From: Firmicutes bacterium UBA5286 | GTDB taxonomy: Bacteria > Bacillota > Proteinivoracia > UBA4975 | Assembly: GCA_002408465.1 (NCBI GenBank) | Contig: DHSM01000016.1 | Location: 10,836 to 74,835 of the forward strand | Length of the DNA stretch: 64,000 nucleotides | Direction: 5' to 3' | Shown: positions 5,657 through 41,266 of the stretch, piece by piece | How the letters are laid out: each line of letters starts with the position of its first letter | Position numbering within the stretch: position 1 is the stretch's first letter | Made by a program: the position numbers and the translations under genes | Notes under the pieces: generated by a model | What the model was told of the DNA's origin: nothing | Seen by the model: only the letters and a program-made list of their open reading frames with translations | Databases searched by the model: none

Positions 5657-6079
5657 ATGGATCTTGAGCATGACTTGGCAAAGCTTAACGCACTGGGGCA
5701 CCGAATCACCCGCCAGCGCCGTCTGGTGCTAGAGGTTATCCTTGCTGACCCCTGTCTCCAAAGCGCTGAAGACATTTATGGCAAGTGCCGGGAGCTTGAT
5801 GACAGCATCAGCTATCCCACAATCTATCGCACTTTGGATATGCTGGTGGAAGCAGAAATGGTCCGAAAACTGCATTTTGGCGGCAGCAAGAGCTGGTACG
5901 AGCCGTTGCAGAGGCAGGAGCACCATCATCATCTGGTGTGCCGGGAGTGCGGCGCCAAGGTGCCAATTGCCGCCTGCCCCGGGAAGCTGATTGCTCAAGA
6001 GGCCAGCCGCAACCAGTTCAAAGTCCTGGACCATCAGTTTGAGATTGTGGGCATCTGTAAAGATTGCCAGAGGAATTAG
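5657..6079 (+). CDS. Fur-family transcriptional repressor (Zur-like)
   Basis: RITRQR, TIYRTL, HHHHLVCRECG and CKDC motifs. Confidence 0.92.
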   Translation: MDLEHDLAKLNALGHRITRQRRLVLEVILADPCLQSAEDIYGKCRELDDSISYPTIYRTLDMLVEAEMVRKLHFGGSKSWYEPLQRQEHHHHLVCRECGAKVPIAACPGKLIAQEASRNQFKVLDHQFEIVGICKDCQRN

Positions 6080-6114
6080 TTCTTCCTTGCATTTTATTTT
6101 CTGGGGTGAAGAAT

Positions 6115-6798
6115 ATGAGTCATTTGCATATAAGTGATGGTGTTTTGCCTTGGTGGCTGTGGGTTGGCGGGTATGTGGCCACCTTAGCAATCGTGCTGCT
6201 GGCCTTAGGCCGGCTTCGGGGCCAGCGCCGTCTGCTGCCAGCAGTGGCAGTAATGGCGGCAGTGGCCCTAGTTGCCATGAACATTCCTCTGGGGTTGCCA
6301 GTGCATATCAATTTAGCTGCGCTGGCAGGCATAATCCTGGGACCCCTCAATGGCTTTTTGGCGATATTCATTGTCAATTTGCTGACCTCATTGATTGGCC
6401 ACGGAGGCGTGACGGTGCTGGGAATAAATTCTCTGTTGGTGGGCAGTGAAGCCCTGGTGGCAGGGCTGCTGTTTAAGGGTTTAGGCGGCGCAAAAAGGCT
6501 GCTGCCCAATATCGCCCTTTCTGTCCTGGTCGCTCTCTTGGTTTCCACCCTCTTGGTGGTGTCAACGGCAGGCCTGGCTGGAAGAGAGCTGGAGGATTGG
6601 GTTGCTCATGTGCACGGCCATGATCCGTTAGTGGAGACAGGACATGACCACGAGTCAGGATTCCTCAAGACCTTTGTCACGATTATCGCGCCACTGGTGG
6701 CGGTATGGATGGCGGCAGAGCTGGCGGTGTCCCTGTTGGTGGCGGGCTATGTAAATAAGGTTAAGGGCGGCTGGTTTGACCGGGGTGATAGCGTTTGA
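6115..6798 (+). CDS. CbiM/NikM-family ECF substrate-binding (S) component with His-rich loop
   Basis: N-terminus MSHLHISDG, VHINL, GHGGVTVLG; HVHGHD..GHDHE loop; start moved to ATG 6115. Confidence 0.85.
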   Translation: MSHLHISDGVLPWWLWVGGYVATLAIVLLALGRLRGQRRLLPAVAVMAAVALVAMNIPLGLPVHINLAALAGIILGPLNGFLAIFIVNLLTSLIGHGGVTVLGINSLLVGSEALVAGLLFKGLGGAKRLLPNIALSVLVALLVSTLLVVSTAGLAGRELEDWVAHVHGHDPLVETGHDHESGFLKTFVTIIAPLVAVWMAAELAVSLLVAGYVNKVKGGWFDRGDSV

Positions 6799-7487
6799 AT
6801 CTGGCGACTCTTGATAATCTGGCTGTCAATCATCGCTGTTGGCTGCAGCGGTGTTCGACACTGGCCAAGGTTCTCTTTGCCGCGGCAGTGCTGACTTTTC
6901 TTCTGACTACAATGTCACTGCCCTTTATCGCCGGGCTGGCAGCGCTGTTGCTGGTCATTGCCTTGAGCAACCGGCTTCCTCTTGCGGTTCTCTTGCCCCT
7001 TGCCCTTATCCCCATGATCTTTGCCGGCATCTTTGCCTTCAGCATTAGGGATTGGGCAGTGGGGCTGACGGTAATTGGACGGGCCGGAACGGCAGCCCTG
7101 ATAGCGGCTGAGGTGTTTATGACCACAGTCCCTGTTCATCTCTTGGGGGTGATCTCAGCGCCAATGCCTGAGATTTTTGGGGAACTTATATATTTTACTT
7201 ATCGGTCCCTCTTTCTGCTGGCAGGGAGCTTGGACAACACCCTGAAGGCAGTGAGATTGCGTCGGGGAAAAGAGAAATTCAGCTTTGCTCGGGTCCGGGC
7301 TACGGCCCAAGTCTATGGCATGACCCTGGTCCGGGCTTGGGATATGGCTGGACGCCAGTATGACTTGCTGAGGCTGCGTGGTCTTGGCCAGGGGCTTAAG
7401 ATTAGCCGGGACTGGCATTTGCGTTCTTCTGACCTGATCTTGCTGGCAGCGATACTCCTGATTGGAATGGGGTGGTATTTTGTCTGA
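6795..7487 (+). CDS. ECF transmembrane T component (CbiQ-like)
   Basis: Hydrophobic; YFTYRSLFLL and LRLRG coupling motifs; overlaps S gene. Confidence 0.8.
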   Translation: MNLATLDNLAVNHRCWLQRCSTLAKVLFAAAVLTFLLTTMSLPFIAGLAALLLVIALSNRLPLAVLLPLALIPMIFAGIFAFSIRDWAVGLTVIGRAGTAALIAAEVFMTTVPVHLLGVISAPMPEIFGELIYFTYRSLFLLAGSLDNTLKAVRLRRGKEKFSFARVRATAQVYGMTLVRAWDMAGRQYDLLRLRGLGQGLKISRDWHLRSSDLILLAAILLIGMGWYFV

Positions 7488-8319
7488 GCCTATTGTTTCT
7501 GTGGATTGTATGCGTCATGTCTATCCTGACCGCACAGAGGTTTCCCTCTGCGGTGTGGAGTTTGCTGTCCAGCCGGGGGAAATCGTGGCCGTGCTGGCTG
7601 CTAATGGGGCAGGCAAGACCACGTTGCTGCAGCATATAACCGGCATGCTCCGGCCGGTGGAGGGCAGCGTCCGGGTCTTCGGCCTCGACCCTTATAAGGA
7701 ATTTGAAAAGGTGCGCACCCGCCTGGGAGTGGTGTTTCAAAACCCCGCCGAGCAGATTATTGGCCCCACTGTGGCTGAGGATATCGCCTTCGGTCTGGGT
7801 CACCTGAAATTGAGCCGGCAGGAGCAGGCCGCCAGGGTGGAGGCTATCTTGCAGCGCCTGGGAATTACTCATTTGGCGGGCAAGGTCCCTCATTATCTGA
7901 GCGGCGGCGAGGTAAAAAAAGTCGCCCTGGCTGGGGCCCTGGTCACAGCGCCGGAACTGTTGGTGTTGGATGAACCCTTTGCCGAGCTGGACATTCAGGC
8001 GGTTGGGGATTTGGTAGGGATGCTGCGGACTGTCAGTCGGGAAGAGGGCACGGCAATTATCTTTACCAGCCATCAGCTGGAACCGGCGGCGCTGCTGGCC
8101 GACACAGTCTATGTCCTCAATGAGGGCCAGGTGGCGGCTAAAGGCAAACCCTTAGAGGTCTTCCAGCAGCAGGATATCCTAGAGCAAAGCCGCCTCCAGG
8201 CGCCGGATTTGTTTCGCTTGGTGGACCTGTTGCGGCGGGCGGGGTTGGATATTGAGCCCAATTTAGATATCCGGCAGGTGGCAGCTCAAATTATCGCCGC
8301 CGCAGAAAATAGTGTATAA
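7480..8319 (+). CDS. ECF ATPase (CbiO-like)
   Basis: Walker A ANGAGKT, FQNP, LSGGE, LDEP; likely TTG start at 7480. Confidence 0.9.
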   Translation: MSEPIVSVDCMRHVYPDRTEVSLCGVEFAVQPGEIVAVLAANGAGKTTLLQHITGMLRPVEGSVRVFGLDPYKEFEKVRTRLGVVFQNPAEQIIGPTVAEDIAFGLGHLKLSRQEQAARVEAILQRLGITHLAGKVPHYLSGGEVKKVALAGALVTAPELLVLDEPFAELDIQAVGDLVGMLRTVSREEGTAIIFTSHQLEPAALLADTVYVLNEGQVAAKGKPLEVFQQQDILEQSRLQAPDLFRLVDLLRRAGLDIEPNLDIRQVAAQIIAAAENSV

Positions 8320-8377
8320 TACCGAAGGGCGGAGTTGGCACCGATTACGCAGATGTTATTGCCGAGGAGGTTGAGGA

Positions 8378-9091
8378 ATGGGAGATATATTGATAATAAG
8401 CACCCTGGCGGGACTGACCACTGCCCTTGGTGCAGGAATAGTAATTCTTGCGGGAAAGCCTTCTACTAAACTGCTGTCTACATTGCTGGGTTTTGCCGGC
8501 GGTGTCATGCTGGCCATTTCTAATTTGGTGCTTCTGCCTGAGGCCATAGAGAACGGCGGCACTGTCATAGCGATAGTAGGATTTGGCTCAGGCGCTTTGA
8601 TGATGCATTTATTGGATCATCTCATTCCTCATATCCATTTCACCAATGGCTGTGAAAAAAATGGGGAAATGCTCAAAGTGGGTTACCTGATATTTTGGGG
8701 GATTGCCGTGCACAATGTGGCCGAGGGTCTGGCCATAGGCGCGGGCATGATCGCTCATCCCAGTCTGGGCCTGGCCATTGCCATTGCCATCGGGATTCAC
8801 AATATTCCTGAGGGGATGGCTACCGCCGTGCCCCTATGCTTAGGGGGATTGAAGGCGGTGAAAGTGCTGATTCTGACTGCCGTTGCAGGCCTGATGACGG
8901 TGGTTGGCGCCGCCCTGGGCAGTCTTGCCTTTCAGTCCAGTTCCGGCTTTGTGGCGGCGGCCCTGGGCTTTGCCGCCGGAGCGATGTTCTATATTGTCGG
9001 GGATGAATTGATTCCCCATGCCCGCAATTATCATCATTATTGTGCGACTATTGGCCTGGTGTTAGGGTTTATAGTGGGAGTGTTGTTGTAA
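8378..9091 (+). CDS. ZIP-family divalent metal transporter (ZupT/GufA-like)
   Basis: HNVAEGLA and HNIPEG motifs. Confidence 0.92.
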   Translation: MGDILIISTLAGLTTALGAGIVILAGKPSTKLLSTLLGFAGGVMLAISNLVLLPEAIENGGTVIAIVGFGSGALMMHLLDHLIPHIHFTNGCEKNGEMLKVGYLIFWGIAVHNVAEGLAIGAGMIAHPSLGLAIAIAIGIHNIPEGMATAVPLCLGGLKAVKVLILTAVAGLMTVVGAALGSLAFQSSSGFVAAALGFAAGAMFYIVGDELIPHARNYHHYCATIGLVLGFIVGVLL

Positions 9092-9248: not shown

Positions 9249-10670
9249 TTAGAGCAGGGGCTGGATGGTATGGGGAGCATTTTTTTCTTTTAATATCCTG
9301 CCCATGATTTTAACGCCTTTGATAATTTCATCCTCGCCGGCGGCGGCGTAGCTGAGGCGAATCCACTGATCATAGAGGCCGCTGGGGGCAAAGAAGCTGC
9401 CGGGGGTAATGAGGACGTCCTCCTTTAGGCACTGCTGATAGAGTTCGTCGCCGGTTATTCCCTGAGGGAGCTTAAGCCACAGGTGGAGGCCGCCGCCGGG
9501 GGCAGTAAAGCGGACTTCTTGGGGCAGGTATTCTGCCAGGGCCTTGAGGGCTGCCTGGCAGCGGGCAGAGTAAAACTTCTGCATGGCCTGGATATGCTGG
9601 TGCCAGGTCTTCTCCCGCAGATACAGGTCCAGGGTGCGTTGGAGGAGGCCTGAACTGGAGATATCGGAAAACTGTTTCGCCGCCCCGATTCCATGGTTGA
9701 GGGGGGCGGGGGAAATAGTCAGGCCTAAGCGCAGACCGGGCATGAGGATTTTAGAAAAGCTCTTGATATACATAACCTGATCTTTTGAGTCCATGGCCTT
9801 GAGGGGCTGGCGGGAAGTATGGTCAAAGGACAATTCACTGAGGTAATCATCTTCGACGATGAAAAACTGGTGCTCCCGGGCAAGGTCCAGGAGGGCCTGT
9901 TTTTTTTGGGTCGAATAGGAGTAGCCAGTAGGGTTTTGAAAGTTGGGCATGACGTAAAAGAGCCGGGGTTTGTGCCGGCGGAGCTGTTGCCTGAGCTCCT
10001 TTAGGTTGGGCCCGTCTTTTTCCAGGGGGATGGCCACTATCCTGGCCCCCCGGGACTGGAAAGAGGCGATGGCCCCGTGGTAAGTGGGGCCCTCAACGAA
10101 GATGGTGTCCCCCGGATTGGCGAGAATTTTTGCTGCCAGGTCGATGCCTTGCTGGCCCCCGGAGATGATGTGGATGTTTTCCACAGGAGTGTGGATGCCG
10201 TTGCTGATCAGGTATTCTTGCATGGCTTCCCGCAGGGGTGGCCAGCCCTGGCTCTCCTGATAGCCAAAGGCGTGCCCGCCGTCCCGGTCCAGCACCTTGT
10301 TGAGCAGGCGCTGAAAATCTGCCACGGGAAAGATCTCCGGGGTGGGAGTGGCACTGGCGAAATTGATGCCGTTGTGGGGGATATATATCTGACGGGTGGT
10401 CTCCGCCGGCGGCGCCGGGCGGACAAAGGTGCCGCTGCCCACTTTGGACCAGACATAACCTAGCTGTTCTAAATTCTTGTAGGCTGTGACTATGGTGACA
10501 TTGTTTACCTCCAGGAGTGCGGCCAGGGACCGGATGGAAGGCAGGCGGGTATCGGGGGCCAGCTGGCCTGAATCTATCGCCTCCGCCAGGGCGGAAGCAA
10601 TTTGAGTGTGAAGAGGTTCAGTGCTCTCCCTCTGCAATCGTATCGATACATTATCTAAAGGCGAACTCAT
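9249..10670 (-). CDS. MocR/GabR-family PLP-dependent transcription factor (GntR wHTH + aminotransferase domain)
   Basis: LPSIRSLA...TIVTAY..L wHTH; SFSKILMPGLRLG with PLP lysine; RBS favours ATG 10670. Confidence 0.92.
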   Translation of the reverse strand: MSSPLDNVSIRLQRESTEPLHTQIASALAEAIDSGQLAPDTRLPSIRSLAALLEVNNVTIVTAYKNLEQLGYVWSKVGSGTFVRPAPPAETTRQIYIPHNGINFASATPTPEIFPVADFQRLLNKVLDRDGGHAFGYQESQGWPPLREAMQEYLISNGIHTPVENIHIISGGQQGIDLAAKILANPGDTIFVEGPTYHGAIASFQSRGARIVAIPLEKDGPNLKELRQQLRRHKPRLFYVMPNFQNPTGYSYSTQKKQALLDLAREHQFFIVEDDYLSELSFDHTSRQPLKAMDSKDQVMYIKSFSKILMPGLRLGLTISPAPLNHGIGAAKQFSDISSSGLLQRTLDLYLREKTWHQHIQAMQKFYSARCQAALKALAEYLPQEVRFTAPGGGLHLWLKLPQGITGDELYQQCLKEDVLITPGSFFAPSGLYDQWIRLSYAAAGEDEIIKGVKIMGRILKEKNAPHTIQPLL

Positions 10671-10760
10671 TTCTAGCAAATCCCTCCTGTACCTATTGAC
10701 ACTATGCTAAGAGCATGCAATAATATTATTGGAAACAATCTAAGAGATTGTACCGATACA
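10639..10760. promoter_or_regulatory. Divergent control region: two near-copies of palindrome TGTATCGATACA plus sigmaA promoter for phnD
   Basis: CGTATCGATACA 10639-10650; TGTACCGATACA 10749-10760; TTGACA 10696-17 nt-TGn AATAAT 10719; IR ACAATCT-aag-AGATTGT 10735-10751. Confidence 0.65.
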
Positions 10761-10815
10761 TTATTATATCCTGTTAACAAGGATATGTAAAGCACTTTTG
10801 AGGAAGGTGTTACAG

Positions 10816-11688
10816 TTGAAAAAAACAGCTTTATTCTTAGCTCTGCTCATGGCGGTCACTCTTATTTCCGGCTGCTTTGGCCAGCAGAAAGAAGAAGAAT
10901 TAGTCATGGCTTTTGTGCCCATGAAGGATGCCGAGAGCCTGGTGGAGAGCGTCGAACCTTTGGCAGAGCTCCTGTCCCAGGAGTTGGGCATCAAAGTCAA
11001 GCCCTTTACCGCTGTCAACTATGTGGCGGTGGTGGAGGGACTGGGCTCGGGCCAGGTGGATTTTGGTTTTATTCCGCCTTTCAGCTATGTGCTGGCCAAC
11101 AGCGAAAGCAATGCCCAGGTAGTGTTGTCTTCCCTGCGCAAAGACGGTTCGGCAACTTACAAGGCTCAATATGTAGTGCGGACAGACAGTGAAATCGATT
11201 CCCTGGAAGATTTGGCAGGGAAAAAGATCGCCTTTGTGGACCCGGCATCTACCTCAGGGTACTTGTATCCTGCTGCCCAGCTCATCGGGCTGGGTTATGA
11301 CATTGATAAGGATTTTCAGACCATTTATGCCGGCGGCCATGACAAGGCTCTGCAGGCAGTATTAAACGGCGATGTGGATATGGCAGTAATGTTTGCCGAT
11401 GCCCGGCAGCGGTATGCTGCAGATTTCCCCGCTGCCATGGAGGAGACAAGAATCATCGGCTATACCGAGCCAATTCCCAGCGTTTCCATTACCGTGCGGG
11501 GAGATATGGATGCGGAGATGTCCGAAAGAATAGCTTCTGCCCTGCTGGCCATTGCCGAGGATCCGGAAGCTTTGGCAATATTAAAGGAGCTCTTTGACAT
11601 CCATGGTTTTGTCCGGGCTACGGACAAGGATTACCAGATAGTCAGGGAAGTTGCAGAGGCCCTGGATGTGGACCTGACGGGAGAATAG
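10816..11688 (+). CDS. phnD: PhnD/PtxB-family ABC substrate-binding lipoprotein
   Basis: Lipobox LISGC; DPASTSGYLYP, GGHDKA motifs; TTG start with RBS. Confidence 0.88.
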   Translation: MKKTALFLALLMAVTLISGCFGQQKEEELVMAFVPMKDAESLVESVEPLAELLSQELGIKVKPFTAVNYVAVVEGLGSGQVDFGFIPPFSYVLANSESNAQVVLSSLRKDGSATYKAQYVVRTDSEIDSLEDLAGKKIAFVDPASTSGYLYPAAQLIGLGYDIDKDFQTIYAGGHDKALQAVLNGDVDMAVMFADARQRYAADFPAAMEETRIIGYTEPIPSVSITVRGDMDAEMSERIASALLAIAEDPEALAILKELFDIHGFVRATDKDYQIVREVAEALDVDLTGE

Positions 11689-11709
11689 AAAAGAACTGGG
11701 GTGGAGGAA

Positions 11710-12477
11710 ATGCTGGAACTGAGGCAGGTAAACAAAAGCTTTCCAGGCGGGGTGCAGGCCCTGGCAGATGTCAGCCTCACGGTGAAGCCAGGGGAATTTG
11801 TGGTCATCGTTGGTGAAAGCGGCGCCGGCAAATCCACTTTGCTCAGGACCATCAATGGACTGGTGAGGCCGGATTCCGGTGAGGTCCTGGTCAACGGCCA
11901 TGACATCGGTTCGCTGCAGGGGAAAGAGCAGCGAAAATTGCGCCGGGGGATCGGCCTGATTTTCCAGGACTTTAACTTGGTGGAGCGCTCAACAGTGCTG
12001 ACCAATGTCCTGGCCGGGCGCCTGGGATACAATCCTGCCTGGAAGACGGTGCTGGGCAGCTTTCCTCCTGAAGATGTGGAATTAGCCCGCCAGGCTTTAT
12101 CAAGGATGGGCCTGGGGGACAAGATATTTAACCGGGCAGCGGACCTAAGCGGCGGACAAAAGCAACGGGTCAGCATTGCCCGGGCCCTGGTCCAGCAGCC
12201 CCACCTGATTTTGGCGGATGAACCTGTGGCAAGCCTGGATCCTCCCACCGCCCATGATATTATGGCCTGGTTCCGCAAGATCAACCAGGAGGAAGGAATT
12301 ACCATCCTGGTCAATCTCCACGACATTCATCTGGCCAGCCAGTATGGAGATCGGATTGTGGGAATGCGTCAGGGAGCTATTGTTTACGACGGGCCTGCTG
12401 TTTCTGTAAACGGGGAGATCTTCGCCAGCATTTACGGGCGGGCGCCGGTTGGAGATAAGTTCAATGGGGCGCTTTAA
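11710..12477 (+). CDS. phnC: PhnC-family ABC ATPase
   Basis: GESGAGKS, FQDFNLV, LSGGQKQRV, ADEPVASLDP. Confidence 0.9.
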   Translation: MLELRQVNKSFPGGVQALADVSLTVKPGEFVVIVGESGAGKSTLLRTINGLVRPDSGEVLVNGHDIGSLQGKEQRKLRRGIGLIFQDFNLVERSTVLTNVLAGRLGYNPAWKTVLGSFPPEDVELARQALSRMGLGDKIFNRAADLSGGQKQRVSIARALVQQPHLILADEPVASLDPPTAHDIMAWFRKINQEEGITILVNLHDIHLASQYGDRIVGMRQGAIVYDGPAVSVNGEIFASIYGRAPVGDKFNGAL

Positions 12478-14008
12478 GTATTTGCTTGTGCTGGCGCTGC
12501 TGGCGCTGTGCGCCTGGCAGATCGGCCTGGATCCGGTGCGAATTTGGCAGGGTCTGCCCCATATGGGGGCGCTTCTGGCCCGAATGGCCAATCCCCAATG
12601 GGACTATGCTGCCCAGGTGCTGGAGACTTTGGCCGAGACCTTGAGCATGGCTGTGGCCGGGGCACTGCTGGGAACCCTGATTGGCCTGCCCCTGGCAATT
12701 ATTGCCGCCAGGAATATCTCTCCTCATCCTGTATTGTGCAGGCTGACGCGTTGGCTGCTGGCAGGAGTGCGGACCATTCCCCATGTGGTATGGGCGGCGC
12801 TGTTGGTAACGGTGTTCAGCATCGGCCGGGGCGCTGGGGTGCTGGCCTTAAGCATCACTGCCGCCAACATTGTGGCGAAACTCTTGAGCGAGTATATTGA
12901 GAACCTTGAGGGCCGGCAGCTGGATGCCCTGAAAGGGGTGGGCGCAAGCTGGGGGGCAATGGTTGTCTACGGGGTGCTGCCAAGGATTGCAGGCCGGGTG
13001 TGGTCGCTGCTCTTCTTTGCCCTGGAAGTAAACGTCAGGGCGGCGACGGTGCTGGGCCTGGTTGGGGCCGGAGGCATCGGCCAGCTCTTGTGGCGGGATC
13101 TCAACTTTCTTCGCTATGACCGCCTGGCCACCCTGATCTTGATTCTCTTCCTTACTGTAGCAGCCATCGACGGCCTGAGCTGGCTGGCCCGAAAACTGCA
13201 AAATCTGGAGTTGCCGGGTTTGGTCTTTCGGGGGTATAAAAACTTTCGGGCCTGGCAGTGGTTGAAGCTGGCCCTGGGCGCTGTCGTGGTCGCCCTTGCC
13301 CTGGGCTGGAGCATATCCCTGCTGGGCATCAGCTGGGATCGGTTTGTCCTGGGCCTCAAACAGGGCAGCTCCATGCTGGGCAGGATGCTTACTCCCGACT
13401 GGAGCTATAAGCACCGCATGCTCCAGGGCTTGGCCGAGAGTATGTATATTGCCTTATTTGCCACTATTGCCGGCAGTCTGCTGGCGGTGCCTGCGGCCTT
13501 TTTCGGCGCCTATAATCTCTGGCGGCATAAGGCCTGGCCCGTGGCAAATAAACTGGCAGTCAATTTTATCCGCACTTTTCCCCCTGTGATTTTGGCGATT
13601 ATGTTCTTCCGGGGGGTGGGACCCGGTCCCCTGGCGGGGGCCCTGGCCCTGACCATTTACACTACTGGGGTGCTGGGGAAACTGTACGCAGAAATCGTGG
13701 AGGCGGTGGACAGCCGGGGGCTGGAGGCAATAGAGTCCACCGGCGCCACGCCTATCCAGGTTTGGGTATATGGCCTGCTGCCCCGGGTGTTGCCGGATTT
13801 TCTCGCTGCTTCCCTTTACCGGCTGGAATCTAATGTCCGCAACGCTACAATTATGGGCATAGTCGGCGCCGGCGGCATCGGCACCTGGCTGATGCTTAAT
13901 CTGTCCGCCCGCTATTGGGAGCGGGTGGGTTTGCTGCTGCTGGGGATGATTGTAACTATATTGCTGGTGGATGCCATCAGCGGATTCATGCGCCGCCGCC
14001 TCTCCTGA
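12464..14008 (+). CDS. phnE: Fused double PhnE permease
   Basis: Two tandem PhnE units (E.NVR.AT..G.VGAGGIG motif occurs twice). Confidence 0.88.
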   Translation: MGRFKYLLVLALLALCAWQIGLDPVRIWQGLPHMGALLARMANPQWDYAAQVLETLAETLSMAVAGALLGTLIGLPLAIIAARNISPHPVLCRLTRWLLAGVRTIPHVVWAALLVTVFSIGRGAGVLALSITAANIVAKLLSEYIENLEGRQLDALKGVGASWGAMVVYGVLPRIAGRVWSLLFFALEVNVRAATVLGLVGAGGIGQLLWRDLNFLRYDRLATLILILFLTVAAIDGLSWLARKLQNLELPGLVFRGYKNFRAWQWLKLALGAVVVALALGWSISLLGISWDRFVLGLKQGSSMLGRMLTPDWSYKHRMLQGLAESMYIALFATIAGSLLAVPAAFFGAYNLWRHKAWPVANKLAVNFIRTFPPVILAIMFFRGVGPGPLAGALALTIYTTGVLGKLYAEIVEAVDSRGLEAIESTGATPIQVWVYGLLPRVLPDFLAASLYRLESNVRNATIMGIVGAGGIGTWLMLNLSARYWERVGLLLLGMIVTILLVDAISGFMRRRLS

Positions 14009-14021
14009 GGCGGATTTTTTT
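13996..14021 (+). terminator. Terminator overlapping phnE stop
   Basis: CCGCCTC-tcct-GAGGCGG then A+T7. Confidence 0.75.
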
Positions 14022-14025
14022 AAAA

Positions 14026-14164
14026 AGGGAGACCCCGCTGTCGGGAGGGGAGACCCCTATTTTGAGGTTAGAGGTTAGATGTTTGATGGTGGAATTTGAG
14101 CCGAGGTGATAAGTGTAGGGGGGCGGTCTCGCCCCCTTGGTTGGATGTTAGAGGTTAGATGTTT
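14026..14164. repeat. Composite dispersed repeat copy 2 (spacer + heptamer array + GTAG REP + second heptamer array)
   Basis: GAGGTTA-type 7-mers at 14064-14098 and 14144-14164; TGTAGGGGGGCGGTCTCGCCCCCT near 14114. Confidence 0.75.
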
Positions 14165-14207
14165 ATTTGCCAGTTGGCACCCTGAATAGGGCCGGGTAAT
14201 ACACTGA

Positions 14208-14388
14208 AGCAGGCAGGAGTTGGTCAGCGTATAATAAGTAATGCTAATTGCACCATATCCTGCCACCAAACGCCGCTTCGGCCAAGTACTGCCGGCATTC
14301 ACGGTACCCGGGGCAGGTTGCCGAACTCGCCGAAGGAGGCGTTTGTTAATATACTGGACCGGGCCCTATGGCCCGGTCCAGGTCTTTT
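14208..14388 (+). ncRNA. Candidate unannotated structured RNA ending in a terminator
   Basis: Hairpin GGCAGGA/TCCTGCC, long hairpin 14268-14344, perfect 12-bp hairpin 14354-14381 + GTCTTTT; no family recognised. Confidence 0.35.
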
Positions 14389-14418
14389 AGATTTTGTGAT
14401 GTGGCCGCCTGTGCGCTC

Positions 14419-15207
14419 TTAATAGTTTAATACCTTGCGGCGGAAGCGTTTGTATACCTGATAGATTCTATTCTCTTTATATTTTTGATCTGTATTGTAC
14501 CGCTTGATAGCCCTGTGGGGAAGTCGGGAACCCATTCCGCCCTGTATGGTAAATCTGCAGGGAAAGCAACTTCCGCAGGGTCTATTTTTAGCGGGGAAAT
14601 GACAAAACCATGTCTTATCCATAATATGGGCGAAACCCTGTCTCTCTGAATCTTCTTTCATGTCGACTTTGCCCATTTGATAAAGGGGCCAGCGGAAGTG
14701 GCCAAACACGTCTAATAAGGCTTTCTGTGAGTTATGTTTGTCAATTTCCCAATAACTTAAGCCGTCATTATCGACGTAGTTCATTTTGCCCATGGTGTTT
14801 ATCATTAGATCGGTTTGGCCGCCAGTTTCGATGCCAATCTCAATGTTTTCGATGTCCTTTGCGTAGCGGGCAAGATATTCATACTGAATGCCTATCAGGA
14901 CATGCTGTCTTATTATTTCAAAGGCAGAAGATATTTCTTCATCAGGAGGAATGTTCTTTTCATTAGTGAGAATAAGCGGTTTTAACTCACATTTTGTCCT
15001 CGGGTCCCTTAAAATGTCCTCGGTAATATCCCGGATTGCACCTAATTCTTGTTTTGTAGAGCGCCGGCCGTCATAAATTATGTAATGGGGCTGTAAAATT
15101 ACGTTCATTCTTGAGAGACACAACACTCTATATGTTGAATCCCAGCCCCCCGTCCATAAAATATCGACCAACTGCTTGCAATTTGGCTTATAATTTTCAG
15201 TTGCCAA
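14419..15207 (-). CDS. QueC-like adenine-nucleotide alpha-hydrolase (PP-loop) protein, function unknown
   Basis: ILWTGGWDST PP-loop variant; C-terminal TWFCH..PCGSCFPC; AT-richer DNA. Confidence 0.7.
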   Translation of the reverse strand: MATENYKPNCKQLVDILWTGGWDSTYRVLCLSRMNVILQPHYIIYDGRRSTKQELGAIRDITEDILRDPRTKCELKPLILTNEKNIPPDEEISSAFEIIRQHVLIGIQYEYLARYAKDIENIEIGIETGGQTDLMINTMGKMNYVDNDGLSYWEIDKHNSQKALLDVFGHFRWPLYQMGKVDMKEDSERQGFAHIMDKTWFCHFPAKNRPCGSCFPCRFTIQGGMGSRLPHRAIKRYNTDQKYKENRIYQVYKRFRRKVLNY

Positions 15208-15444
15208 AATTGTTGACCCCCTTTATATTAATGATACGTAGTTCTGCATCTTGTAAGAAAATACCTCCTTATCTTTCAACTTGAAGATAATAGGACCTTT
15301 CCAGAAGTTCCCGCCTTATGAATCGATAAAAACTCAGGGGGCAGTCCAAATTGCCAGGGACAGCCCCCTGTTCTATTGAGGCCAACTCATTCAAAATGTA
15401 CAGCTGTTTGCTAAGTGCAAAATCTAATGACCCCGTAGAAAATT

Positions 15445-15505
15445 ATTATTGACAGACAATAATAGTACTGTTATATTTGAATTGTAATTATTGCATTACG
15501 ATAAT
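15445..15505 (+). promoter_or_regulatory. sigmaA promoter with two 7-5-7 operators
   Basis: TTGACA 15449-17-TGnTATATT; ATTATTG-N5-CAATAAT (15445) and ATTATTG-N5-CGATAAT (15487). Confidence 0.75.
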
Positions 15506-15521
15506 TGGAGGATGATAGAAC

Positions 15522-16490
15522 ATGAAGACTAAAACCCTGGCCATTGTATTAGGCATAGGGGCGCTGCTGAGTATTATTGCAGCCGCATACGGTCCCGCCC
15601 CTTCCGGCAGCGCAGTTACTGGGTTATTCTCTTTTCCTTTTGCTCAGATTGGAAATTTGCTGCGTGCCATGTCCCTGGCAGGGACCTTTGGCAACATAGC
15701 GGCGATCCTGCTTTATATAGCACTTGGTCTTTGTCCGATACTCCTCTTGTTGTGGCGGGTGATAAAGAAGCAAGTCCGGATTGAGGATGCTTTGCTTGTG
15801 ATCATCAGCCCTCTGCTCTTTTTTATGATGTACCTCATGGTAAATCCTGCCCTGATCCACAAGCTGTTTATTTTAGGCGGCATGGGCGAGTTCGGGAAGG
15901 CTGTTCTCGGCGGAAGCTTTTATTCTGTCCTCATTGGCTATCTAATCCTCAGGCTATTGCGCCGGATTAGCCGCAGCAAGACAGCTGAAATGCTGAAATG
16001 GCTGCAGCTGCTTTTTGCTCTTATTGCCGCTGCCCTGGTATTCAGTGTGTTTTACCTCGCTGTGACTGGGATGATTGGCACTATTCAGGAGGTAAAAAAC
16101 GCTAATACCGATCCTGCTGTTTCCTTGGCTATGACCAATACAATTATTGTTATTCGCTTTGTTTTGCAGCAAATCCCGGTTCTCCTCAGCGTTTGGGGGC
16201 TTATTTTGGCCATTAAACTCACTGCTGCTTTAAAACAGGATAGATATGGCGAAGAAGCAGTTACTGCTGCCGGCAGGCTGGGAGCATTCAGCAAACTGAC
16301 AGTGGCTGTTACTGTAATTTGCTCCATTGCCGCAAATATTTTGCAACTGATATTCAGGGGGTCTCTCAATTCTCATTTCTCTATCCATGTGCCTTTTGCT
16401 CCGCTGGTGCTCATGCTGATTATGCTTGTGTTGGCTCAATACTTTGCTGACAGCAGCAAACTGCATCAGGACAACCAACTGTTTATCTAG
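15522..16490 (+). CDS. Multi-pass membrane protein, C-terminus DUF2975/YoaS-like
   Basis: Many TM segments; ends LHQDNQLFI directly before a YozG-like HTH gene. Confidence 0.7.
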   Translation: MKTKTLAIVLGIGALLSIIAAAYGPAPSGSAVTGLFSFPFAQIGNLLRAMSLAGTFGNIAAILLYIALGLCPILLLLWRVIKKQVRIEDALLVIISPLLFFMMYLMVNPALIHKLFILGGMGEFGKAVLGGSFYSVLIGYLILRLLRRISRSKTAEMLKWLQLLFALIAAALVFSVFYLAVTGMIGTIQEVKNANTDPAVSLAMTNTIIVIRFVLQQIPVLLSVWGLILAIKLTAALKQDRYGEEAVTAAGRLGAFSKLTVAVTVICSIAANILQLIFRGSLNSHFSIHVPFAPLVLMLIMLVLAQYFADSSKLHQDNQLFI

Positions 16491-16502
16491 GAGTGGGATC
16501 CA

Positions 16503-16724
16503 ATGGCGATACAAGTTTATCTGTCTGATGTGCTCAAAGACAGGAAAATGACTTCCAAGGAATTATGTGCTCTGGTGGATATAACTGAAGCCAATTTATC
16601 AATTTTACGCTCTGGCAAGGCTAAGGGCGTGCGCTTCAGCACAATCAATAAAATTTGCTACTATTTAAAATGTGATGTGGGCGACCTCTTAAAATTTGAT
16701 GGGAATCTGGAGGATGATGAGTAA
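16503..16724 (+). CDS. Xre/Cro HTH regulator (YozG-like)
   Basis: NLSILRSGKAKGVRFSTINKIC. Confidence 0.92.
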   Translation: MAIQVYLSDVLKDRKMTSKELCALVDITEANLSILRSGKAKGVRFSTINKICYYLKCDVGDLLKFDGNLEDDE

Positions 16725-17674
16725 TGCCTAAGAAGTTAGTTTGGTTGGTTTGCGCCGTCTTGCTCTGCGCCTGTCTTGGCGGCTGTCAGTTGGCCCGGGA
16801 AGATGTCGGGGAAGAGAGTTTGTCCGGAGATAAATTTGTTGGGGTGTATATCACCTTTGACCCCCTGTATTATTTCTCAGCCGAAAACCCCTTTGAGGAG
16901 ACAAATAATCCCGATGCAGAACCGCGTTTTTATGCTACAGCGAAGCAGGTGGAAAATGATGGGTATACAACCACTACCTTCGAATTTGAAGGCATTGATG
17001 GCATTCCATTTTTTACAGCAACTGTATTAGGCGCCGATGAAAGCGCAAATTATAGGACAAGTATTATGGGACCAGAAATAATGAATCCGGCAACAGCTTA
17101 TTTCGATACTGATACAACTATAACCGGCAAAATTGACATTGTTGAGCCAACGGAAGTTGTATTGTGTATGAATCCCGTATACCAGACTAAAGACGGCAAA
17201 ATATATATGCTTCCTTGCGAAACCGGGGTTTTCATCTCCAAGGGGGCTTTAGCTACAACAACCTTGTTTGAAACGGTGACAGTAACTGAGAACGGTGAAG
17301 AAATCACTTCCAAGACATCTGTAGAATTAAGCGCAGAAGTAGTACGCAAACCAGTGAAAGAAATTTTTAAGGAAATGAACGGCCGGGATGAAACCATCCG
17401 CACAACCGAGATTACGCCAGAAAACATTCCGGATTCCATCCACCTGCAGCCCGATTGCGCCTATGTGATAGTCGAAACCCACAGCAGCGGTGAAAACGGG
17501 CTGGAAGTCACCAGAACCCTTTTGGATCTTGAGGAGGGGTATTACACCTATAAATATGAAGGGGAAAGGGGTTGCCTCATCGGCAAAATGATTGAAATCC
17601 ACAGGAACGGGATAGTTTTTAGCACTGTGACAAGTTTTGCACCGGGTCTTAGTTTTCCGGCTGAACTTCATTGA
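16724..17674 (+). CDS. Hypothetical lipoprotein
   Basis: Lipobox CLGGC; TAATG stop/start overlap with HTH gene. Confidence 0.7.
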   Translation: MPKKLVWLVCAVLLCACLGGCQLAREDVGEESLSGDKFVGVYITFDPLYYFSAENPFEETNNPDAEPRFYATAKQVENDGYTTTTFEFEGIDGIPFFTATVLGADESANYRTSIMGPEIMNPATAYFDTDTTITGKIDIVEPTEVVLCMNPVYQTKDGKIYMLPCETGVFISKGALATTTLFETVTVTENGEEITSKTSVELSAEVVRKPVKEIFKEMNGRDETIRTTEITPENIPDSIHLQPDCAYVIVETHSSGENGLEVTRTLLDLEEGYYTYKYEGERGCLIGKMIEIHRNGIVFSTVTSFAPGLSFPAELH

Positions 17675-17721
17675 TTTAAACCTTCTCTTGTGGGATAATG
17701 TGGGAAATTGGAGGTGTTGGC

Positions 17722-18120
17722 GTGAACCCGAATATTGATGTTATCAGGGACATTATGATTCAAAGGCTTTCACCCTGGATTGTGTACCTCTTTGGGTCTG
17801 CCAGCACAGGGAAAATGAGAGCTGACAGCGATTTTGATCTTGCTTTTTGCAGCGATGTGGTTAACAGTGATTATGAGGTGTTTATGGTTGCCCAGGCATT
17901 GGCGGATAAACTGGGGCGGGAAGTGGACCTGGTAGATTTGAGCAAGGCTTCCGAAGTCTTCAGGGCTGAAATTATCGGGTCCCGTAAAATTATTTATGAA
18001 AAGGATCGTCAGCGCAGATATTGGTTTGAAACCAATGTCCTTGAGGATTATGCTTTGTTAAATGAACGCCGCAAGCCGGTATTGGACCGAATCAAGGAGA
18101 GGGGGACCATTTATGACTGA
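17722..18120 (+). CDS. mntA: MNT (MntA-type) minimal nucleotidyltransferase antitoxin
   Basis: YLFGS-X10-DFD motif, REVDLVDL; own promoter TTGATT 17671-17-TGnGATAAT. Confidence 0.88.
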   Translation: MNPNIDVIRDIMIQRLSPWIVYLFGSASTGKMRADSDFDLAFCSDVVNSDYEVFMVAQALADKLGREVDLVDLSKASEVFRAEIIGSRKIIYEKDRQRRYWFETNVLEDYALLNERRKPVLDRIKERGTIYD

Positions 18121-36008: not shown

Positions 36009-36092
36009 CTCTTATCAAGAGCGGTGGAGGGACGGGCCCGATGAAACCCGGCAACCGGCTGAAAGCACGGTGCCAATTCCCGCAGATGAGGG
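36009..36092 (+). ncRNA. SAM-I (S-box) riboswitch aptamer lacking helix P4
   Basis: CTCTTATCAAGAG..GGAGGGAC..GCCCGATGAAACCCGGCAACC..GGTGCCAATTCC-cgc-AGATGAGGG upstream of metK. Confidence 0.93.
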
Positions 36093-41072: not shown

Positions 41073-41266
41073 TGTCCGACAGGTCTGTGGTTGAAAGTCG
41101 ATGCCAGCCGCAGGCAAAACGACCCACGTAAGGCAATGCGTTAGCATTGCTGAGCATGGTGCGGCTTAGATGTAAGTCCTGCCGGGAAAACCGAGAGGGG
41201 CAGTAGTTTTCCGCGAACCCCCCAGCAGGCGAGTGTGGGGGCAAAGACCAGGTCAGCTGTCGGACA
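41073..41266 (+). ncRNA. raiA-motif RNA
   Basis: GGTCTGTGGTTGAAAGTCGATGCCAG..GCAGGCAAAACGA..GAGCATGGTGCGGCTTAG..GTAAGTCCTGCCG..CCAGCAGGCGAGTGTGGGG..AAAGACCAGGTCA; closing stem TGTCCGACAG/CTGTCGGACA; between comF and hpf. Confidence 0.92.

Follow-up and report, generated by a model that had tools for sequence, protein, structure and literature searches.

The only characterised bacterial vitamin B6 transporters are PdxU, PdxU2/HmpT and P5PA, and many genomes import B6 or pyridoxal 5'-phosphate (PLP) by means that were unidentified as of 2023 (PMC9997740). Here we describe a locus from Firmicutes bacterium UBA5286 that may add to this short list. It lies in a stretch of 64,000 nucleotides (contig DHSM01000016.1, positions 10,836 to 74,835; hereafter the window), and consists of a gene for a MocR-family regulator, pdxR, placed head-to-head with an operon, phnDCE, for a transporter of the ATP-binding cassette (ABC) family and of the type annotated as a phosphonate importer. 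We consider it highly probable that the operon is under the control of PdxR, and probable that it serves a B6 auxotroph as an importer of B6 vitamers of some kind; that PdxR here governs an importer of phosphorylated B6 in particular is, in our judgement, an even chance.

Among the closest described regulatory arrangements is the pdxR-pdxST divergon of Firmicutes and Actinobacteria (Bacillus clausii, Listeria monocytogenes, Streptococcus pneumoniae and Corynebacterium glutamicum), in which, as here, an autoregulated MocR factor with an intact PLP lysine is encoded divergently from its target (PMC5320631). Clostridial pdxR-pdxST loci (L091, L092) also share the two-box operator, consensus TGTATCGATACA, and the promoter layout. 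The difference is in what is regulated, which here would be a PhnDCE-family importer rather than PLP synthase, in a host without a de novo pathway. PdxR is known, too, to control uptake or salvage in B6-dependent bacteria, at the PdxU and PdxKU loci of Lachnospiraceae (PMC5320631) and Streptococcus pyogenes (PMC11619246), and the closest relatives of the present regulator (L204, L089, L205) show the pdxR-pdxU layout. PdxU, however, is the S component of an energy-coupling factor (ECF) transporter (PF07155) and is unrelated to PhnD, PhnC or PhnE, whereas the system described here is a binding-protein-dependent ABC transporter. In this it resembles an AfuABC-like ABC system of Actinobacillus that has been proposed to import PLP, the phosphorylated and active vitamer, by way of the PLP-binding periplasmic protein P5PA (PMC8427247, PMC9997740), but P5PA belongs to COG1840/PF13531 and not to PF12974. 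It should be noted that homologues of P5PA were not found in genomes lacking both PLP synthesis and salvage pathways (PMC9997740). In profile searches the PhnD, PhnC and PhnE of the window matched neither of the known B6 transporter families PF07155 and PF13531; the likeness to known B6 transporters is one of regulation and inferred role only.

By descent the transporter belongs with Escherichia coli PhnCDE and with PtxABC/HtxBCD, with which it shares PhnD, PhnC and PhnE homology and the S-T-S-His-Tyr motif that binds the ligand head. It differs from them in its fused permease and lipoprotein binder, in the absence of the capping Tyr and the amine-binding Asp, and in having neither C-P lyase nor phosphonatase beside it (ptxD was not specifically searched for). 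The Mycoplasma p37/p29/p69 system (Cypl), which carries thiamine pyrophosphate, a phosphorylated vitamin, likewise combines a lipoprotein binder with an ATPase and a fused permease. This comparison, drawn in the initial annotation, holds as a functional analogy but as nothing closer, because the p37 binding protein is from a different family, one met by no search here. No paper in the literature searched links PdxR or vitamin B6 to PhnD or to an ABC transporter for phosphonates. What is new is the combination of a known PdxR module with a known transporter family, which implies a new substrate class.

The source genome (G000; 2.2 Mb, 97% complete) is from an uncultured Bacillota lineage. The elements of the locus are as follows, in window coordinates.

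9249-10670, minus strand: pdxR, MocR-family regulator of 473 amino acids, GntR winged helix and aminotransferase-like PLP domain
10639-10650: PdxR box 1, CGTATCGATACA, within the 5' end of pdxR and roughly 90 bp upstream of where phnD transcription is predicted to start
10696-10724, plus strand: predicted sigma-A promoter of phnDCE, TTGACA, 17 nt, TG-n-AATAAT (11/12 matches, extended -10)
10749-10760: PdxR box 2, TGTACCGATACA, over the predicted pdxR transcription start and at about +17 to +28 of the phnD transcript
10763-10791, minus strand: predicted sigma-A promoter of pdxR, TTTACA, 17 nt, TATAAT (11/12 matches)
10816-11688, plus strand: phnD-family lipoprotein substrate-binding protein, candidate B6-phosphate binder (PF12974, 246 bits)
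11701-12477, plus strand: phnC-type ABC ATPase (TIGR02315, 330 bits, cutoff 266)
12449-14008, plus strand: fused double phnE-type permease of 519 amino acids, two BPD_transp_1 (PF00528) stretches
13996-14013, plus strand: intrinsic terminator closing the phnDCE operon, 7-bp GC-rich stem followed by TTTTTTT

The pdxR open reading frame (ORF) spans 9249-10679 on the minus strand; the ATG at 10670, preceded by a GGAGGG ribosome-binding site, is the probable start. The phnD product has a lipoprotein signal ending in the lipobox LISGC; it passes the subfamily model TIGR01098 (246 bits, cutoff 112) and falls below the PhnD equivalog TIGR03431 (212 bits against a cutoff of 261). The fused PhnE matches TIGR01097 in two stretches (474 bits, cutoff 217). 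Profile searches therefore uphold, in coordinates and in domain content, the head-to-head placing of a MocR gene and phnD-phnC-fused phnE that had been read from the letters of the window. The complete pdxR-phnDCE pair is present in four genomes, namely the source genome, its sister (G001), G002 and G003. The regulator together with phnD recurs in at least seven loci (the window, L005/L097, L006/L098, L086, L088, L090 and L206), among several of which the flanking genes vary, and the adjacency is therefore not due to chance.

The regulator contains PF00392 (GntR) at residues 25-86 and PF00155 (Aminotran_1_2) at residues 124-451. It scores 368.3 bits against the NCBIfam PdxR equivalog NF052282 (cutoff 320), and the other MocR subtype models all remain below their own cutoffs (YczR 279, MocR 277, EhuR 232, GabR 155 and PtsJ 124 bits). 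The PLP lysine, K307 in a K-S-F-S-K motif, is invariant in 25 aligned homologues that cover the phn, pdxU and pdxST types. A search with the single protein returned the sister metagenome-assembled genome only, and an alignment-based search returned 80 GTDB loci, a quarter of which (20/80) have a divergent pdxS-pdxT layout. Homologues at about 50% identity stand divergent from pdxS-pdxT (L091, and L092 from Defluviitalea); those partnered with phnD(CE), in the six loci named above beside the window, are at 52-90% identity, and those partnered with one or two PF07155 (PdxU-family) ECF S-component genes (L089, L204, L205) at 54-66%. In a maximum-likelihood tree, seven regulators of the phn type and three of the pdxU type form one clade (support 100/99), with the pdxU-type L204 (66% identity) nested inside the phn group (support 99/97); the outgroups are all of the pdxST type, and a larger quick tree agrees. 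That phnDCE and pdxU occur as either/or partners within one regulator clade suggests that both are doing the same job. Judged by model score (368 bits, against 155 for GabR), by its position in the tree among pdxST-linked regulators and by the operator common to them, the regulator is a predicted PdxR orthologue, and the earlier proposal of a PdxR-type factor is borne out. The published 'PdxR (Clostridia)' regulon consists of two PdxU genes, PdxK or PdxS/PdxT (Suvorova & Rodionov 2016, PMC5320631 supplement); neither that paper nor its supplement has a phn gene or an entry for COG3221.

Loci of the phn, pdxU and pdxST types each contain two copies of a 12-bp palindrome of consensus TGTATCGATACA. 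The first copy lies at +8 to +23, within the 5' end of the regulator ORF; counting from the regulator start, the second is at -72 to -106, and 95-117 bp separate the two. In the window the spacing of the boxes is 110 bp. They are in register with those of more than 16 pdxR-pdxST loci, and strong predicted phnD and pdxR promoters face each other between them; L086, L088, L090 and L091 share the element TTGACA...TG-n-(A/C)ATAAT. To judge from these elements, the module matches that of pdxR-pdxST loci in all but the gene that the promoter serves. The 2.2-Mb genome has four sites that depart from the consensus by one mismatch at most: two are those of the window locus and the other two are isolated singletons. 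Apo-PdxR, where characterised, is an activator of pdxST and a repressor of pdxR, and the activation is lost with PLP (PMC5320631); by analogy with this we infer the direction of regulation in the present operon. Given where box 2 lies, PdxR could also repress phnD directly when PLP is high.

The leader of phnD, which is at the same time the spacer of the pdxR promoter, also has a small inverted repeat, ATATCCTG-TTAA-CAAGGATAT, at 10766-10786. The repeat occurs, with some compensatory changes, in all loci of the phn type and is absent from those of the pdxST type; four pairs are predicted, with weak covariation. No riboswitch was found by Rfam upstream of phnD, in the window or in eight related loci.

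The boxes are also found where the regulator is encoded elsewhere. The order phnD-phnC-fused phnE without an adjacent MocR gene, with PhnD at 47-63% identity, occurs among others in Tissierella, Gudongella, Tindallia, Anoxynatronum and Alkaliphilus transvaalensis. Thirty loci without an adjacent regulator were searched for TGTAYSSRTACA, allowing one mismatch at most, and the 300 bp upstream of phnD were compared with the rest. There were 12 matches in the 9 kb upstream of phnD, spread over 12 of the 30 loci, against 3 matches in the remaining 395 kb, so that the density is 175-fold higher upstream of phnD (22-fold in a looser count). Eleven genomes with an unlinked regulator have exactly one PdxR-like MocR each (E < 1e-80), and in five of these the regulator gene and phnD have matching boxes upstream. 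G027 (1.8 Mb) contains just two exact sites genome-wide, one upstream of its sole PdxR-like gene and the other upstream of phnD. Two Tissierella genomes (G006, G026) have further boxes directly upstream of PF07155 genes of the PdxU type (144 bits), and the palindrome therefore marks a B6 regulon. A scan of the operator for links to B6 genes, which the initial annotation had proposed, thus found boxes at pdxST and pdxU loci elsewhere; in the source genome, where the scan was genome-wide, none lies near the kinase gene described below.

In Anoxynatronum and Tindallia, phnD has a box, and the best MocR match, which aligns from residue 92-93 only, is without a matching one. Many Clostridia (L100-L174) have free-standing genes for PdxR-like MocR proteins (43-49% identity) with a single autoregulatory box at -16 to -46 and with no B6 gene nearby; the targets of these regulators, pdxU and in part phnDCE, appear to lie elsewhere. 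The neighbours of the free-standing genes at about 45% identity are miscellaneous (a diacylglycerol-kinase-like gene and an HD-domain gene, for example) and were set aside as a clue to B6. The same applies to the neighbours of phnDCE in Tissierellaceae (a two-component system, an HtrA-like protease, a PucR-type regulator and an M20 amidohydrolase), which are uninformative on the substrate. Additional exact boxes in L189, L194 and L202 are inside coding regions and probably there by chance. An exact PdxR-type box, TGTATGGATACA, lies at the gcvH-gcvPA junction of Tissierella pigra (G006; L192, position 1501); both genes belong to the glycine cleavage system, one of whose enzymes depends on PLP, and the box may mark another member of the regulon or be there by chance.

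The source genome has no PdxS, PdxT or PdxJ, and the three other genomes with the same gene pair (G001, G002, G003) have neither PdxS nor PdxJ. It encodes a pyridoxamine/pyridoxal kinase (NF005491, 409 bits, cutoff 231) and gave no match to a PdxH of the E. coli type. A PdxU-type S component is absent from G000, G002 and G003; the weak PF07155 matches of the source genome are accounted for by ThiT, by a protein of the FolT family and by an unassigned S component that is not related to the PdxU of L089. By its predicted gene content, therefore, the source genome is that of an organism that must import B6 and lacks a known B6 transporter. Since it has neither B6 synthesis nor PdxU, and phnDCE is its only operon with PdxR boxes, phnDCE would be its regulated B6 uptake system. 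Among ten genomes with phnDCE orthologues at 55-62% identity, eight have neither PdxS nor PdxJ and two (G005, G007) have PdxS.

In Gemella (L040, 8001-10228; L041, 8001-10151) two tandem PhnD paralogues, about 41% identical to the PhnD of the window, precede phnC and fused phnE. Three Gemella genomes examined are without PdxS, PdxJ and PdxU-type genes, and no PdxR box was seen in the regions upstream of phnD. These systems are candidates for the same function under other control.

The substrate-binding protein can be compared with solved structures, the nearest being the phosphite-binding PtxB (5JVB, 5O2J, 5LV1), followed by E. coli PhnD (3P7I). The PhnD of the window was aligned with E. coli PhnD and with Te and Ps PtxB, and residue roles were taken from PMC5700983 and PMC12718374. 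The ligands of the phosphoryl or phosphonyl head correspond as follows.

Tyr, in VNYVAV of the window protein: Y55 of PtxB, Y47 of E. coli PhnD
Tyr, in SATYKAQ of the window protein: Y100 of PtxB, Y93 of E. coli PhnD
Ser-Thr-Ser, in DPASTSGY of the window protein: S130-T131-S132 of PtxB, S127-T128-S129 of E. coli PhnD
His, in GGHD of the window protein: H160 of PtxB, H157 of E. coli PhnD

Thus the two Tyr, the S-T-S and the His are all retained. The position that determines specificity for the tail of the ligand is occupied by different residues.

PtxB: Tyr208, a steric cap that limits the pocket to phosphite
E. coli PhnD: Asp205, which binds the amine of 2-aminoethylphosphonate (2-AEP)
GpxB: Thr247, which binds a glycerol hydroxyl
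PhnD of the window: Val
Relatives in Clostridia, Fusobacterium and Gemella: Ile or Val
Bacilli-type homologues at a greater distance (L036, L063, L064): Asp, the residue of E. coli PhnD

The Asp22 that holds the cap in PtxB is Met in the window protein, and the position of E. coli Glu177 is Asp, within a conserved F-(A/V)-D-x-R motif. As the head ligands are all kept, it is very probable that the protein binds its ligand by a phosphoryl or phosphonyl group; the residues at the tail positions indicate that this ligand is not phosphite and that it is not bound in the manner of 2-AEP in E. coli. A precedent is GpxB, a binder of glycerol-1/3-phosphate from the same family (PhnT, TC 3.A.1.9), in which the phosphoryl-head ligands are conserved and the tail positions (E177 and D205 of E. 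coli) are remodelled for a phosphate ester instead of a phosphonate; this family can, then, accept phosphate esters (PMC12718374). GpxB differs in having Arg223 and Thr247 where Asp and Val/Ile are found here, and also in regulation and biological role. The residues of the present pocket fit PLP, pyridoxamine 5'-phosphate (PMP) or pyridoxine 5'-phosphate (PNP), without proving any of them.

The scheme that we propose is one in which PdxR, as a PLP-sensing MocR factor, would drive phnDCE in place of pdxST or pdxU. When intracellular PLP is low, PdxR would permit or activate transcription of phnDCE; with PLP bound, it would shut off the operon and its own gene. Outside the cell, the lipoprotein PhnD would capture a phosphorylated vitamer by its phosphate, most likely PLP and possibly PMP or PNP, and pass it to the fused PhnE permease, powered by PhnC. 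The cargo is inferred from comparative data. The suggestion of the initial annotation that a PhnDCE-family system imports a B6 vitamer is favoured by the exchange of partners, the missing de novo synthesis, the boxes at distant loci and the residues of the predicted pocket. A broader proposal, which we make only tentatively and would not yet back at even odds, is that the PhnD subfamily with Ile or Val at the cap position constitutes an unrecognised family of ABC importers for PLP or phosphorylated B6. It would range over Tissierellales, Peptostreptococcales-like Clostridia and the lineage of the source genome, perhaps with the Gemella and Fusobacterium homologues at about 40% identity; its members are universally annotated in databases as phosphonate transporters.

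Several observations weigh against this scheme. The B. clausii PdxR whose structure has been studied is no more than a distant relative of the regulator (102 bits), and PdxR regulons have been reported with some genes not tied to B6 supply (PMC5320631). Box 2, being downstream of the predicted phnD start, is a better fit to repression than to activation in the style of pdxST. No recognisable box is present in 18 of the 30 loci without an adjacent regulator (the Tissierella praeacuta-type and 17 others), the sister genome G001 has one PF07155 gene, and the link with B6 auxotrophy is not strict, as the PdxS-positive G005 and G007 have orthologous phnDCE. The kinase of the pyridoxal type could, moreover, allow an unphosphorylated cargo to enter by this or another system. 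An importer under PdxR control that takes up pyridoxal, pyridoxine or pyridoxamine for phosphorylation in the cytoplasm would be served by this enzyme. It would also accord with the known PdxR partners PdxU and PdxK, which act on unphosphorylated vitamers (PMC5320631, PMC9997740), and all evidence of linkage to PdxR fits it equally well. We regard such a cargo as distinctly unlikely, in view of a PhnD that keeps every contact to phosphoryl or phosphonyl oxygens made by all solved family members (PMC5700983, PMC12718374). No uncharged, phosphorus-free ligand is among those named in the same two papers, and pyridoxine could not be converted to PLP without PdxH. Alternatively, the cargo might be phosphorus in a form other than B6 (phosphate, another organophosphate ester or a phosphonate), with control by PdxR reflecting a secondary link to PLP metabolism, such as providing a PLP enzyme with its substrate, or a regulatory accident. 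Membership of the transporter family is in keeping with this, and PhnDCE of Mycobacterium smegmatis is a phosphate importer. For marine PhnD1, from organisms without phosphonate catabolism, a role in phosphate transport has been proposed (PMC10284923). The non-B6 genes of PdxR regulons and the phnDCE of G005 and G007 also count in its favour. We nevertheless think it unlikely, since it leaves unexplained both the exclusive alternation of phnDCE and pdxU in one regulator clade and the 175-fold enrichment of boxes across genera. In addition, four B6-auxotrophic genomes have phnDCE as their only PdxR-controlled operon, three of them lack any other candidate for a B6 importer, and the capping Tyr that gives selectivity for phosphite is absent.

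For phosphonates there is also the evidence of catabolic genes. PhnJ is absent from the whole 2.2-Mb source genome, in which E. coli PhnG, PhnH, PhnI and PhnJ gave no match by tblastn either, and no phosphonatase PhnX exceeded the cutoff in the 24 genomes that have this transporter subfamily, the source genome included; PhnW and PtxD were not specifically searched for. An absence first remarked on for the window is in this way extended, for phnGHIJ and phnX, to the whole genome. It bears equally on the idea, also raised in the initial annotation, that the system takes up aminophosphonates, the MocR protein sensing 2-AEP through an external aldimine in the manner of GabR or TauR and inducing the importer. 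MocR relatives do sense γ-aminobutyrate and taurine (PMC5320631), and taurine has its phosphonate analogue in 2-AEP, which is a ligand of E. coli PhnD (PMC12718374). But the regulator is of the PdxR subtype rather than GabR by its scores and has the pdxST operator, no PhnX, PhnJ or PhnG-I is at hand, and the Asp205 that binds the amine is replaced by Val or Ile here, whereas the distant Bacilli-type homologues keep it. We have rejected this sensor on these grounds as very improbable. Just as little credence, or slightly less, can be given to a functionless adjacency, in which pdxR would be a remnant from the loss of pdxST and phnDCE would have landed beside it by chance. The genome has indeed lost pdxST, and gene order around the locus varies among relatives, but at least seven loci with differing flanks, extending to a regulator identity of 52%, have retained the pair together with its two boxes and two promoters. 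The ORF is intact, as is the PLP lysine, and boxes precede phnD also where the regulator is encoded elsewhere.

If PdxR-controlled PhnDCE systems do import phosphorylated B6, they would provide a testable candidate family for the missing B6 transporters of B6-auxotrophic anaerobes and host-associated Firmicutes, closing part of that gap, and a second, independent solution, after P5PA, to the uptake of a phosphorylated cofactor. The substrates of the PhnT family (TC 3.A.1.9) would then be widened from phosphonates, phosphite and glycerol phosphates to a cofactor, and one conserved PdxR module would prove to have been re-used for synthesis (pdxST), for ECF uptake (pdxU) and for ABC uptake (phnDCE). 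A systematic misannotation as 'phosphonate ABC transporter', which bears on predictions of phosphorus cycling, vitamin auxotrophy and cross-feeding in anaerobic communities, would also be put right.

The surroundings of the locus are of other kinds. Directly after the phnE terminator there is an island of low GC content (14001-18120; 45% GC against 54-59% in the flanks). It contains a weakly QueC-like PP-loop ORF (14419-15207, minus strand), two ORFs without a family match (15522-16490 and 16724-17674) and a nucleotidyltransferase of the Pol-beta/MNT type (17698-18120) with weak matches to PADLOC PDC-S09. The syntenic locus L086 has different genes at this position, and the island thus looks like an insertion. 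On the other side, just past the 3' end of pdxR, the plus strand encodes at 5657-9091 a Fur-family regulator, an ECF metal transporter of the CbiM/CbiQ/CbiO type and a ZupT/ZIP transporter, a region over which L086 is syntenic. This cluster is probably for the uptake of metals (Ni/Co/Zn) and unrelated to pdxR-phnDCE. Further along the window, Rfam identifies an S-adenosylmethionine (SAM-I) riboswitch at 36009-36092 (73 bits) and a raiA RNA motif at 41074-41265 (191 bits).

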